Shown here piece by piece: positions 5,219 through 24,820 of a stretch of DNA of 26,546 nt; the first letter of the stretch is position 1, and the number at the start of each line of letters is the position of its first letter. The notes below the pieces were generated by a model. It saw nothing but the letters and a program-made list of their open reading frames with translations, ran no database searches and was not told the DNA's origin. The translations under genes and the position numbers were made by a program. This DNA comes from Microcoleaceae cyanobacterium (lineage in GTDB: Bacteria; Cyanobacteriota; Cyanobacteriia; Cyanobacteriales; Microcoleaceae), in contig JBOFUV010000011.1 of the NCBI GenBank assembly GCA_051652765.1, positions 1 to 26,546 of the forward strand, in the 5' to 3' direction.

Positions 5219-5252
5219 TCCTGAAAGTTTCCTGAAAGTTTCCTGAAAGTTT
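5219..5252. repeat. Tandem repeat, 3 x 11 bp CCTGAAAGTTT
   Basis: Read directly from the sequence, between the protease and Crp genes. Confidence 0.9.
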
Positions 5253-8237: not shown

Positions 8238-8992
8238 CTCAAAAATTCTTCAGGATCTCTTTCTTCAAAGTTAATCGGATTGGCGTTCAGCTTGCTAGCA
8301 GGTTCATCCAACTTTACAACAGACCCTCTTTGATTGGTACGGTAAATCCAGCGTTTGTTTCCACCTATAACCGTGACCTGCCATCCGGGTACAATCGCCA
8401 TTGTACACAAGACATCGGGCTCAGCTAGACCTAGACAGCCATTCGGCCACATTTGGGGTTTTGCCTCAACAATGTTTAAGTCAGTTGCGGCTAGCCCAGA
8501 TCGACGCACAACATCTTCTAGTACTGCCTCAGCTACCGGGGCAGGCAACTGACTCGAGGCTTGGGCAAAGTACTGTCCCGAAGTTTGGCGGCGGGTCTGT
8601 CCAACCTGAGCAGGCAAGTAACTGTTATGAACACTGTTATGAAATAGTTGAGACGTTTGAGCAGAGTATTGAATCAAAGTGAAAAGAACACCTTCTTTTG
8701 ACGGTGACTTTTGGGCTCTTTCAGAGAATAACTGATCTACTTGAGTGATTCCCGCGATCATCGGCGTTAGGGGGATGACCTCGGATTTAACATTCGATTT
8801 TAAATCCAACTTAAAATCCGATTTTAAATCGGATTTAAAATCAGAGCTTAAAAGAATGTTCAGACTGCCGGGATAGGCTTGAGTGGCTATAGCTCCAGTC
8901 AATAAAAACGCTAAAATTAGAGGCCGAGGCTGTTTCTCTTGCAAGCCACGATTGCTTGCTTTAGGTTTGGGAGAAAAAAAGTTATGTTTCAT
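8228..8992 (-). CDS. Secreted hypothetical protein with cyanobacterial WPxGCLGL...CT...VPGW domain
   Basis: 254 aa with a signal-like hydrophobic stretch and a recurrent two-Cys domain at the C-terminus. Overlaps the MscS 3' end by 10 bp. Confidence 0.8.
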   Translation of the reverse strand: MKHNFFSPKPKASNRGLQEKQPRPLILAFLLTGAIATQAYPGSLNILLSSDFKSDLKSDFKLDLKSNVKSEVIPLTPMIAGITQVDQLFSERAQKSPSKEGVLFTLIQYSAQTSQLFHNSVHNSYLPAQVGQTRRQTSGQYFAQASSQLPAPVAEAVLEDVVRRSGLAATDLNIVEAKPQMWPNGCLGLAEPDVLCTMAIVPGWQVTVIGGNKRWIYRTNQRGSVVKLDEPASKLNANPINFEERDPEEFLSYF

Positions 8993-12475: not shown

Positions 12476-12899
12476 AAGGAGCAGGGGTTTGGTCTAGGCC
12501 CGTTTGTCGGTTGGGTCGGGCAACTTGTGATTCTGTAGAGCAGTTCGAGGTGAAACTCAACCCGTTGTGGGAGCATTGTTTGAAGGTGTTAGGTCTCTCC
12601 AGATCGGTACTAACCTGTACCTTGCTACGAGCTTTCATCAATCATTGGGGATTACTACCCTTGAGGGTGCTTCAGCGAGAGGATGTTTACAAGTGGTGCT
12701 TACAAAGAAGTGTTTACAAGCTGTTTATAAAGAAATGTTTACAAAGTTATTGCGAAAATCCTACGTTTTAAACTTTTCTCTTGACTCTGTTCCACCAAAG
12801 TTCGATGATAAGTCCAATTTGTAAAAGTTTAAGTCCATTCTTAAACCCTTAAGATCAATTTTAATTGAATCAACCCCTTAAAGAATTAGGATCAGGCAC

Positions 12900-19280: not shown

Positions 19281-19308
19281 AAAAAACCTAAATAAGAGTT
19301 CTCAAGAT

Positions 19309-19373
19309 TAACTTTCAAAAGTAACTTTCAAAAGTAACTTTCAAAAGTAACTTTCAAAAGTAACTTTCAAGAT
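19309..19373. repeat. Tandem repeat, 5 x 13 bp TAACTTTCAAAAG
   Basis: Four perfect copies and one variant, read directly. They fill most of the 2TM-DUF3181 spacer. Confidence 0.95.
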
Positions 19374-19379
19374 TAACGG

Positions 19380-20347: not shown

Positions 20348-20421
20348 GGGCTTGTAGCTCAGTGGACTAGAGCACGTGGCTACGGACCACGGTGTCGGGG
20401 GTTCGAATCCCTCCTAGCCCG
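20348..20421 (+). tRNA. trnR: tRNA-Arg (anticodon ACG)
   Basis: GGGCTTG acceptor, TAGCTCAGTGG D-arm, CGTGG-CTACGGA-CCACG anticodon arm and GGTTCGAATCC T-arm. CCA is not encoded. Confidence 0.97.
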
Positions 20422-22003: not shown

Positions 22004-23410
22004 TTAAAAGTCAGAAACTCTTAGTTGCTGTTCTGAAGTGGGCTGTCCGGCTGCAGGCCAGCTCTGGTCAATACCCGTGAGGATTGTCTTGAGGTCTCCC
22101 CCTTCAACATAGTCTACTACTCCAAACCAGAAGCTTCCAGTTCCTACCGTTCCGGGCATCATATCTGAAGCATCAAACCGAACGATATCCGCATTCCGCA
22201 AAAGTTCAGCTTGCGTTCTGCTCACCGGATCGGGGTAAGTAGTCAGCTTGACCTGTTTATGCGGGGAGAGATAGCCTCCCAGTCTTGCCCAAGTTTCATG
22301 GGGGGTAACAGTAGTCATGTACTGGATTAACTTACGGGCAGCAGGAGTATCATTGAACATTGCAATGAAGTCACCTCCGACTAACAGCGGTGTCCCAAAC
22401 TCTGGCTGAATTGGGGGCAGAGGGAAAAGATCAATATCCTGACCCAAGATTACTCCCTTAGGAAAAAAGTTAGTAATAAAACTAGCCTGACGATGGAGAT
22501 AACAACTGGGTGGGTCAGAAAACAGTCCGTTTGGAGAGTCGCTAAAGGAGGTATTGATCACACCAATGGTTCCCCCGACTACGAATTTAGGATCGAGGAC
22601 AATCCGACCAAATTGTTCAAAGGCTTGTTGAATTGGAGGACTTGTGAAAGGAATCTCTCCCTTAACCCACTGATCGTAAACTTCTGGGCCAGAGGTACGC
22701 AGGAGAATATCTTCAATCCAGTCTGTGCCCACCCATCCGGTCGCATCTCCACTTTCAATCCCTAAACACCAGGGAACACGACCATCGGTCACAATTCGTT
22801 CTGAGAGAGCTTCCAGTTCTTCCCAAGTTTTTGGAACTTGATACCCTGCGGTCTGAAATGCTTTCGGGCTATACCAAACTAAGCTCTTCACTGAAACGCG
22901 ATACCAAATTCCATAGACTTCCCCGTTCACACTCCCCAATTTGATCCATTCCGGATCATAAGCTTGAGTGAGTTGAGAGCTATCAATAAAGCGATCGAGT
23001 GGAACCAATAACCCTCTACGGGCAAATTCGGCAATCAGTCCGGGTTGGGGAAAAATCACAATATCTGGCTTATGACCTTCCTCTACCCTCACGGGCAATA
23101 GGGTCGTAAACGCTTCTGTTCCTTGATAGATGACTTCAATTCCGGTGGATTCAACAAACGGAGTCAACGCTGCTTCTAGCTTCTGCTGTTGTTCTCCTGT
23201 AATTGCCCCTAAAATTGTGACCGTATTCCCTTCAGAGGGGGTTTGAGTACCCTGGCTTTCCTTGGGTTTATCTCGCTCATGGCTACAGGCCCCAAGCAAC
23301 ATCAAGCCCGTAAGTAGACCCAAGTAAAGGATTGGACTACGGATTTGAAAAGGGACATGCCAAAACTGTTCGGCATTACCTAGAACTGATCTAATCTTAG
23401 GAAACGACAT
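22004..23410 (-). CDS. Carbohydrate ABC transporter substrate-binding lipoprotein (GgtB/AglE alpha-glucoside-binding-like)
   Basis: Lipobox LLGAC. PQPG, KSLVWY, PWCLGIESGDATGWVGTDWIED, LHRQASF and RFDASDMMP motifs. Confidence 0.9.
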   Translation of the reverse strand: MSFPKIRSVLGNAEQFWHVPFQIRSPILYLGLLTGLMLLGACSHERDKPKESQGTQTPSEGNTVTILGAITGEQQQKLEAALTPFVESTGIEVIYQGTEAFTTLLPVRVEEGHKPDIVIFPQPGLIAEFARRGLLVPLDRFIDSSQLTQAYDPEWIKLGSVNGEVYGIWYRVSVKSLVWYSPKAFQTAGYQVPKTWEELEALSERIVTDGRVPWCLGIESGDATGWVGTDWIEDILLRTSGPEVYDQWVKGEIPFTSPPIQQAFEQFGRIVLDPKFVVGGTIGVINTSFSDSPNGLFSDPPSCYLHRQASFITNFFPKGVILGQDIDLFPLPPIQPEFGTPLLVGGDFIAMFNDTPAARKLIQYMTTVTPHETWARLGGYLSPHKQVKLTTYPDPVSRTQAELLRNADIVRFDASDMMPGTVGTGSFWFGVVDYVEGGDLKTILTGIDQSWPAAGQPTSEQQLRVSDF

Positions 23411-23432: not shown

Positions 23433-23512
23433 AAGACTTAAACCTGAAGATTTAAACCTGAAGACTTAAACCTGAAGACTTAAACCTGAAGACTTAAACT
23501 TGAAGATTTAAA
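23433..23512. repeat. Tandem repeat, ~5.7 x 14 bp AAGACTTAAACCTG
   Basis: Read directly. It begins 22 bp upstream of the sugar-binding protein start codon. Confidence 0.95.
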
Positions 23513-23555
23513 TTCTCTCCTGACTAGACTTTAGCCATTCAGCCGTTAAACAGCA

Positions 23556-23614
23556 ACAAAAAACACCGCATCTCGTTCGAGAGCGGTGCATAGGGGGTGT
23601 TATGGGTGTTACAT
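23556..23614 (-). ncRNA. Putative small RNA, copy 1 (~58 nt)
   Basis: Extended -10 TGCTATTCT at 23628-23620, C-rich 5' part UAACACCCAUAACACCCCC, then hairpin CACCGC-UCUC-GAAC-GAGA-U-GCGGUG plus U6. Confidence 0.6.
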
Positions 23615-23674
23615 ATGCAAGAATAGCAGAAATTGACCCACTGACAAGCGATAGTGTGTGCAACTTGTGAAAGT

Positions 23675-23690
23675 GTCACAAAATTGTCAC
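23675..23690. promoter_or_regulatory. 11-bp-period direct repeat GTCACA-N5-GTCAC (OmpR/PhoB-type site), copy 1
   Basis: GTCACAAAATTGTCAC, with the same motif upstream of copy 2. Confidence 0.5.
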
Positions 23691-23715
23691 GAATACAGCC
23701 AACCGTTAAACAGCA

Positions 23716-23774
23716 ACAAAAAACACCGCATCTCGTTTGAGAGCGGTGCATAGGGGGTGTTATGGGTGTTATGT
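23716..23774 (-). ncRNA. Putative small RNA, copy 2 (~58 nt)
   Basis: 69-bp core identical to copy 1 except one hairpin-loop base. It has its own extended -10, TGCTATCGT, at 23788-23780. Confidence 0.6.
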
Positions 23775-23823
23775 TTACAACGATAGCAGAGGGTAAAGCC
23801 AGTTCTGATCTCCCCATGTGATA

Positions 23824-23840
23824 GTCACAAAACTGTCACA
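23824..23840. promoter_or_regulatory. 11-bp-period direct repeat GTCACA-N5-GTCACA, copy 2
   Basis: GTCACAAAACTGTCACA. Confidence 0.5.
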
Positions 23841-23932
23841 AATTCCAGCGAATCGATTCTTTTTCACAAGATGCCGGAAAGGATTCATTTGATGCCAGAA
23901 TAAGTTACAACCGCTTGAGAGAAGAAATAACC

Positions 23933-24820
23933 ATGACGTTCAGCTTGTTTGATCTCTTCTGGGTTTTTCTGCTGATCACCTCAATTCAACCCATTCTGCA
24001 GAAACGGACTGTTGAGACCCGTCGAGTGAAGGCGATTCAGGAGTTTGAGCAGCAACGCCAAAGTCGGGTGATTCTTTTGATCCATCGGCAAGAATCTATC
24101 AACTTGTTTGGGATTCCGTTGTCTCGTTATATTAGTATCGAAGATTCTGAACAGGTGCTTCGGGCCATTCGTCTCACACCGCCCGATGTTCCGATTGATT
24201 TAATTCTTCACACTCCCGGAGGGCTAGTTCTGGCAACGGAACAGATTGCCCGTGCTTTAATTCGGCATCAAGCCAAAGTCACTGTGTTTGTGCCTCACTA
24301 TGCCATGAGTGGCGGGACAATGCTGGCTCTGGCAGCAGACGAGATTGTGATGGATGAAAATGCGGTTCTGGGGCCTGTTGATCCCCAACTTGGGAATTTT
24401 CCAGCCGCCAGTATTCTCAAGGTGATCGAAGACAAGCCAATTGGAGAAATTGATGACCAGACCTTGATTATGGCGGATATCTCTCGTAAAGCGATTAGCC
24501 AAGTGCAAAAATTCGTCAGAACCCTGTTACAAGATAGTATTCCTGAACAAAAAATTTCCAGCGACAAGGTGGATGGGGTGATTGAAGCGTTGACGACGGG
24601 TCGCATTACTCATGATTGTCCAATTACGGTGGAAGAAGCAGCACTGTTGGGACTACCTGCGATTCCGGGTTTGCCCAAGGCGATCTATTACTTAATGGAT
24701 TTGTATCCTCAGTCCATGGGAGGCCGACCAACGGTTCAGTATATTCCGATGCCTTACAATCGACCTCTTCCTGTATCCGAGGGACAGGGCAAGACGGAGA
24801 GTTTTGCCTCAAAGCGTTAG
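23933..24820 (+). CDS. SDH_sah (DUF114) family ClpP-fold serine protease
   Basis: N-terminal TM. IHRQE, LILHTPGG, VPHYAMSGGT, LGPVDPQ and THDCPI motifs. The ATG at 23933 is preferred over the TTG at 23915. Confidence 0.9.
   Translation: MTFSLFDLFWVFLLITSIQPILQKRTVETRRVKAIQEFEQQRQSRVILLIHRQESINLFGIPLSRYISIEDSEQVLRAIRLTPPDVPIDLILHTPGGLVLATEQIARALIRHQAKVTVFVPHYAMSGGTMLALAADEIVMDENAVLGPVDPQLGNFPAASILKVIEDKPIGEIDDQTLIMADISRKAISQVQKFVRTLLQDSIPEQKISSDKVDGVIEALTTGRITHDCPITVEEAALLGLPAIPGLPKAIYYLMDLYPQSMGGRPTVQYIPMPYNRPLPVSEGQGKTESFASKR

Follow-up and report, generated by a model that had tools for sequence, protein, structure and literature searches.

Two tandem units on the minus strand of a contig of a Microcoleaceae cyanobacterium (JBOFUV010000011.1 of assembly GCA_051652765.1) are likely to be genes for small regulatory RNAs some 55 letters long. 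Judged from sequence, they belong to a real, conserved and apparently undescribed family of putative small-RNA genes, of a kind (sibling sRNAs) that is already known. The window analysed is the whole stretch of 26,546 nucleotides. Each unit looks like a complete predicted minus-strand gene, with an operator, an extended −10 box, an RNA of ~55 nt and a terminator (Table 1). In the reading that we prefer, to which we give a probability of roughly 0.6, each copy is a free-standing sRNA gene that is activated by a factor at a 24-bp palindrome, and the seed of its RNA blocks translation at the ribosome-binding site and start codon of mRNA. A predicted transcription factor would bind the palindrome and activate each unit, and each would be transcribed into its ~55-nt RNA. 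The unpaired C-rich seed would then pair with mRNA over the ribosome-binding site and start codon, and the second copy would raise or tune the dose. Activation is preferred to repression because the palindrome is located upstream of the −35 region, 29–31 nt before the −10 box.

Table 1. Predicted features of the tandem locus and its neighbours, in window coordinates
Feature	Position	Strand	Basis
Carbohydrate ABC substrate-binding lipoprotein (SBP_bac_1), downstream neighbour	22004..23410	-	domain match
Predicted promoter of the sugar-binding-protein gene	23528..23556	-	conserved before orthologue, three genera
Predicted ~55-nt RNA, copy B	23558..23612	-	RNA model 76.6 bits; fold
Intrinsic terminator hairpin and U6 tract, copy B	23558..23589	-	fold; homologue alignment
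Seed AUAACACCCCC, copy B	23593..23603	-	conservation
Extended −10, copy B, TGC TATTCT	23620..23628	-	homologue conservation
Operator, copy B: 24-bp palindrome	23657..23680	-	matrix, homologue conservation
15-nt tail behind copy A, same as copy B tail	23703..23717	-	identity; G002 comparison
Predicted ~55-nt RNA, copy A	23718..23772	-	RNA model 76.4 bits; fold
Intrinsic terminator hairpin and U6 tract, copy A	23718..23749	-	fold; homologue alignment
Seed AUAACACCCCC, copy A	23753..23763	-	unpaired; conservation
Extended −10, copy A, TGC TATCGT	23780..23788	-	homologue conservation
Operator, copy A: imperfect 24-bp palindrome, at around −68 to −45 relative to the predicted start	23817..23840	-	matrix; homologues
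SDH-family Clp-fold serine proteinase, divergent neighbour	23933..24820	+	NCBIfam NF047768, 410 bits (cut-off 250)

Both units are read on the minus strand, copy A being the upstream and copy B the downstream unit. BLASTN and the coordinates bear out the tandem pair described in an earlier note on this DNA: 23543–23611 and 23703–23771 are alike over 69 bp with a period of 160 bp, and their sole mismatch (23578/23738) is at the base that opens the minus-strand hairpin loop. A BLASTN search of the 5.04-Mb genome with the 69-bp core (E = 1.5e-28) gives no third copy, and a covariance model of the RNA built from 27 homologues likewise finds only the two, the next best match having E = 0.6. The 5′ ends of the RNAs are placed near 23612 and 23772 from the position of the −10 boxes (± 2 nt), from which the length of 55 nt follows.

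The minus-strand 59-mer of each unit folds as an unpaired 5′ part followed by one 3′ hairpin (−17 kcal/mol) and then six U, in agreement with the terminator hairpin claimed in the note. The stability of the hairpins corresponds to z = −4.7 and −4.4, and 0 of 200 shuffles are as good. A terminator scan listed no hit at the hairpin of either unit, probably on account of the bulge that it contains. Among the homologues 92.9% of the cells of the hairpin are paired. Five of the nine base pairs vary one-sidedly, by G–U wobble, which fits the minus strand as the RNA strand; covariation in the hairpin is not above the shuffled control (94/500 shuffles as high). The homologue alignment comprises four conserved islands, i.e. 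the 24-bp site, the extended −10, the seed and the terminator, with free spacers between them. The joint conservation of these elements while the spacers drift upholds the view that each unit is its own small-RNA gene.

The C-rich seed AUAACACCCCC is conserved at 95–100% per position, and its unpaired probability over 56 distinct RNA bodies has a mean of 0.94 and a minimum of 0.55. The C-rich UAACACCC was claimed to be doubled, and this is so in many copies, but not throughout the family; near-invariance is limited to the longer second motif. The first repeat varies: Microcoleus-type copies have it in altered form, and three genomes lack it. Of the pairs seen, that of genome G001 has diverged furthest: both repeats of its downstream copy have the same A-to-U change, and the first repeat of the other copy is degenerate, a possible case of seed specialization. 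At two loci where the first repeat is lost, a short stretch 3′ of the terminator complements the 5′ end of the Microcoleus type, probably by chance.

The plus strand at the same position reads AGGGGG-TGTT-ATG and opens short frames, and in principle a small protein could have its ribosome-binding site and start codon here. Yet these frames range from 4 to 134 codons with unrelated products (122 of 127 copies have the ATG), and the promoter and terminator point the opposite way. This explanation, taken together with that of a repeat without function, against which stands the presence of only two copies in the genome, is very improbable.

The extended −10 box lies at an equal offset in the two units, as the note had stated. 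Of 111 distinct candidate copies, 110 have a box of the TGnTAnnnT type at 29–31 nt from the operator, and the one that lacks it is a weak non-homologous match. To avoid circularity, a set of 39 distinct copies was located by the model of the RNA body alone, and operator and extended −10 are both present in every one. The upstream GTCAC direct repeat, proposed as the operator, does exist (23675–23690 and 23824–23839), but the two are 149 bp apart rather than 160; GTCAC as the conserved upstream element is given up, since it is the 24-bp palindrome that relatives keep, exactly in the 160-bp register. The operator of copy B has an additional half-repeat immediately upstream (to 23691), and this is the source of the GTCAC repeat. 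The operator of copy A is the best match to the matrix in the genome, the site itself belonging to the training set.

The identity of the two cores extends 15 nt beyond the U-tract (23543–23557), outside any RNA body. Purifying selection had been put forward for the near-identity, and the islands are indeed conserved; yet 68/69 identity is not due to selection alone, since a piece of the predicted promoter of the neighbouring gene is duplicated behind the other unit. The predicted −35 box in the promoter of the sugar-binding-protein gene, a box whose proper place is behind copy B, recurs in the tail of copy A, while G002, of the same genus, has a different flank behind its copy A. From these sequence comparisons the tail of copy A is likely to be a gene-conversion tract, and conversion from B to A would be the simplest reading of the shared tail. 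Loop letters are common to the copies within each genome and do not follow copy position, and stem variants are common to both copies within each genus; both gene conversion and selection have probably kept the copies alike. With respect to one versus two duplications, cross-genus promoter identities lie at 0.58–0.64 in all four pairings of the two paired genera. The tandem pair would be a small but clear illustration of conversion between the genes of sibling sRNAs.

The homologue search in cyanobacteria that had been suggested returned a family that is restricted to the Microcoleaceae among the genomes searched. The RNA model has matches at E ≤ 0.01 in 112 of 144 Microcoleaceae genomes, and in 108 the match is strong (E < 1e-7); three of the four weak matches were inspected and all are without the operator, and four genera of the family have no match (0/12, 0/7, 0/2 and 0/2 genomes). 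A pattern scan with one genome per species gives 93 loci, including a few records with other or vague labels. Named carriers are Microcoleus, Tychonema, Kamptonema, Lyngbya, Limnoraphis, Capilliphycus and Planktothrix, together with unclassified relatives. The tandem pair occurs in 10 genomes of two genera with a spacing of 157–168 bp, and the remaining carriers have a single copy. In 151 genomes of the order strong matches are confined to this family; 11 weak matches at the level of the order were inspected, all being without the operator and one Yfr1-like. At 29 loci in other orders that contain the sugar-binding-protein gene, neither RNA nor operator is present, and viral contigs give 0 matches to the RNA. 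These negative results hold for the genomes searched, with filters that lose weak matches. Strong homologues make up 23 of 98 metagenome loci with a loose match. The note had named as the contrary case many dispersed copies without the promoter, i.e. a repeat of the REP/MITE type; this is rejected, there being two copies here and one or two at a single locus in relatives, all with promoter elements.

The sugar-binding-protein gene that follows copy B has a predicted promoter of its own, with a −35 box TTGCTG (23551–23556) and a −10 box TAAAGT (23528–23533) separated by 17 nt; the distance from these boxes to the RNA varies among the three genera. Two unrelated types of sugar-binding protein (27% identity over 135 aa) are encoded downstream of the RNA. 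The type in the window is AcbH-like, and the other is trehalose/maltose-like and located within an ABC operon in four other genera. The repeated link of the RNA with such genes is suggestive, and since they lie on the same strand the RNA might be a leader or actuaton, with the sugar ABC transporter genes behind it driven by partial read-through or by antitermination. The accessible text of PMC6596454 describes actuatons from cyanobacteria. Against this, a sugar-binding-protein gene is the next gene downstream at 8 of 17 mapped loci (10–15 kb each), the other nine having a different gene, one of them convergent. Moreover, the stretch between RNA and gene is not conserved and can reach about 450 nt, and no alternative fold competes with the terminator. 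An actuaton in the sense of a fixed link to a promoterless downstream gene is rejected in view of the varied neighbours and the promoter-like boxes of the downstream gene. A leader is therefore improbable, and the free-standing gene is the likelier form because the transporter gene has its own conserved boxes and the RNA persists without that gene.

In the sugar-binding-protein gene, a 14-bp tandem repeat of 5.7 copies (23433–23512) separates both the predicted promoter and the ribosome-binding site from the start codon, and may alter the translation of this protein. G002 is without the repeat, and there the ribosome-binding site directly precedes the same start.

The note assigned the RNA to no known family, and this stands: Rfam gave only a tRNA over the whole window at the gathering score, and scans of the locus and five homologous loci to E ≤ 10 gave chance matches only. 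Nor is it NsiR1, Yfr1 or Yfr2, none of which the note had recognized in it; there is no Rfam match to these, and the genome contains separate NsiR1-family and Yfr1-like loci. The RNA scores below the gathering cut-off of NsiR1 (RF02399), while two other loci in the genome score above it. Both of these have TCCGGA upstream (L703:1501-1552 and L704:1501-1554), which we take to be the letters of the DIF1 promoter motif. In 33 of 33 relatives, too, NsiR1-family RNAs score above the Rfam cut-off, and arrays of them are frequent; Microcoleaceae, which are not known to form heterocysts, are among these relatives. The DIF1 promoter motif of NsiR1 is named in the accessible text of PMC9045159, where NsiR1.4 is described as repressing by binding over a start codon, and the part of a published table that is available marks NsiR1 homologues in some Oscillatoriales (PMC4734099).

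NsiR1 and the RNA described here are alike in their length of ~60 nt, their tandem copies with individual promoters and their 3′ terminator. They differ in that the present RNA has no DIF1 motif, occurs as one or two copies instead of arrays and is not beside hetF, its neighbours being the sugar-binding protein and the SDH protease. The shared size and layout could reflect a diverged offshoot of NsiR1 that has come under a different regulator while keeping an NsiR1-like role in pairing, and some Planktothrix-type copies do start GUAGAU-AA-CACCC, near the 5′ end of NsiR1 (rows of the PMC4734099 table; Rfam consensus). But this start is not conserved in the family, there is no NsiR1 match to E = 10 here or at the five homologous loci, TCCGGA is absent from 23450–23900, and the true NsiR1-family loci are elsewhere in the genome. 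Descent from NsiR1 is thus quite improbable, more so than a leader.

Like the RNA, Yfr1 is a short sRNA of cyanobacteria in which an unpaired C/A-rich motif precedes the terminator. The Yfr1 motif ACUCCUCACAC is absent from both units. It is present at a Yfr1-like locus (G000:C65 near 27760-27850) that closely matches the published Nostoc row. The RNA is restricted to one family, whereas Yfr1 is marked in all 89 genomes of the table, as far as its available part extends (PMC4734099). For Yfr2 there is no Rfam match at the locus, and its conserved motif is absent there. NsiR4 is also a short sRNA, and pairs around the ribosome-binding site according to the accessible text of PMC9196836; it is NtcA-activated, in contrast to the present RNA, which has no GTA-N8-TAC box in 23450–23900, so that the two are set apart by promoter.

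In organization the units correspond to sibling sRNAs. There are at least two similar copies, each with a predicted promoter, regulator site and terminator, and a conserved unpaired seed complementary to a G-rich site and AUG. OmrA/OmrB of enterobacteria and LhrC1-5 of Listeria are tandem sibling sRNAs of this kind, each with regulator box, seed and terminator; they belong to other phyla with other regulators, and there is no Rfam sequence match to them. The CiaR-dependent csRNAs (ccnA-E) of pneumococcus likewise have several similar copies under one regulator, and complementarity to ribosome-binding site and AUG; in the accessible text of PMC4507080 they pair with these sites, two are in tandem, and their action is additive. 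The csRNAs differ in being from another phylum, in their length of 87–151 nt, and in having a known regulator and targets, as against ~55 nt and a palindromic operator here; Rfam gives no match to them either.

No description of the RNA was found in the literature searched, which excluded subscription papers. Those supplement rows of PMC4734099 that hold the letters of the motif are unrelated, in the available part of a table that is built on Nostoc start sites. PMC12873609, in its accessible text, screened 202 genomes, of which 29 are Oscillatoriales, and may list the present hairpin among its terminator-overlapping structures.

The reverse complement of the 5′ part of the RNA reads AGGGGG-UGUU-AUGGG, so that the complement of the seed is a G-rich site, four bases and AUG. 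Since the seed thereby mirrors a ribosome-binding site and start codon, blocking of translation is the likeliest mechanism. Duplexes were ranked over a crude set of ~4,000 genes (77% of the genome; crude gene caller, accessibility left out), and the best start-region duplex (−26.7 kcal/mol) is no better than that of the coding-region control (−27.5). Three target candidates were followed in 29 genomes. Two of them, lpxD and a polysaccharide deacetylase, are rejected, as their pairing sites are not conserved. For the third, a kinase-family gene that we take to be pyrH, the site forms a duplex of −15 or better in 9 of 20 carriers of the RNA and also in 2 of 8 non-carriers. Seed footprinting covered ten genomes and the present one (170 fetched loci, a subset of the listed sites). 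Counts of the seed complement do not exceed those of controls, and the 40 candidate start regions contain one recurring orthologous group, weak at −12. Within the reach of the ranking and footprinting, with their crude gene caller, there is no convincing conserved mRNA target. The only recurring target candidate, and a weak one, is a conserved hypothetical protein of ~75 aa, whose ribosome-binding site is both strong and conserved across three genera.

The outcome of the target search would suit an RNA that binds or titrates a protein recognizing single-stranded (A/U)CACCC, for which an extra copy adds binding sites. The doubling of the motif in many copies, the parallel A-to-U change in G001 and the inability of a pure C tract to pair with the A of the canonical AGGAGG point the same way. 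But just one motif is near-invariant, the first repeat being altered or lost in several lineages. In addition, Csr/Rsm sponges display their motifs in loops, which is not the case for the (A/U)CACCC motifs here. Titration of a protein is on balance unlikely, if the most serious of the rivals, and we retain antisense pairing of the seed as the probable mode of action.

The operator also marks other genes. The refined consensus TRTGMCASTT-N4-AASTGKCAYA gives 27, 19 and 25 matches in three sets of five genomes, against 10, 4 and 5 for a reversed-pattern control (palindromic sites being counted twice, and a few matches being a recurrent repeat). A matrix trained on the RNA promoters gives little coherent signal in the own genome alone, and pattern searches in relatives reveal orthologous palindrome sites. 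Of 30 orthologues of P0122, a hypothetical membrane protein of 258 aa, 24 have an upstream operator score of at least 10, with further families of the order represented; for P0121, a hypothetical protein of 110 aa, the same holds for 22 of 30 homologues, compared with 4 of 29 and 0 of 28 for control genes. The two proteins were chosen because sites had already been seen at some orthologues, and the sites first seen are part of the counts. A −10-like hexamer comes after the palindrome, at a similar spacing, in many of these promoters. Atlas look-ups of the two proteins returned hypothetical proteins only. The presence of the palindrome at two unrelated protein genes points to an uncharacterized regulon, and its occurrence in genomes and families without the RNA indicates that the predicted factor is older or more widespread than the RNA. 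The same palindrome lies upstream of genes at G000:C67:7167-7943 and G000:C7:8203-8565 and at three further loci (L184, L179 and L180), and two of these genes have strong cross-genus conservation.

Genes near further palindrome sites encode pectate-lyase-like, DUF2157, GFO/IDH/MocA, TPS-domain, DUF4347 and MshEN-type proteins, and one unnamed protein gene has a nearby site in three genomes. They have a loose, unproven theme of surface and carbohydrate. From the neighbours and the co-regulated genes the inducing signal is probably, if on slender grounds, tied to carbohydrate uptake or the cell surface. It is conceivable, and we advance it tentatively, that the RNA is the repressing arm of an undescribed palindrome-marked regulon for disaccharide uptake and surface polysaccharide in mat-, crust- and bloom-forming Microcoleaceae, and may act via a C-rich-RNA-binding protein and not by base pairing.

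As to the factor, the palindrome is presumably unlike the NtcA, CRP, RpaB HLR1, RcaC L-box, NrrA and Pho boxes in spacing or symmetry; for CRP we assume a spacer of 6 nt in the operator, compared with 14 here. A literature search with the motif gave nothing relevant by title. In two genera a multi-receiver OmpR-type regulator is encoded two genes further down from the RNA (L250:3972-6458 and L253:6641-8494), and these regulators are weak candidates for the operator-binding factor.

Work on cyanobacterial sRNAs centres on Synechocystis and Nostoc, and among the genomes searched this RNA has no strong match beyond its own family. It hardly differs among Microcoleus, Planktothrix and Lyngbya/Limnoraphis, which are dominant in soil crusts, freshwater blooms and mats. 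What is new is a putative sRNA family and its operator, delineated here; the kind of system is already known, and the surprise is moderate. The operator is sharply defined and marks other conserved genes as well, which makes the factor and its inducing signal directly testable. Elsewhere in the window there is a tRNA gene (20348–20421), and short intergenic tandem repeats are located at 5219–5252, 8781–8842, 12683–12746 and 19302–19377; several such repeats are typical of these genomes.
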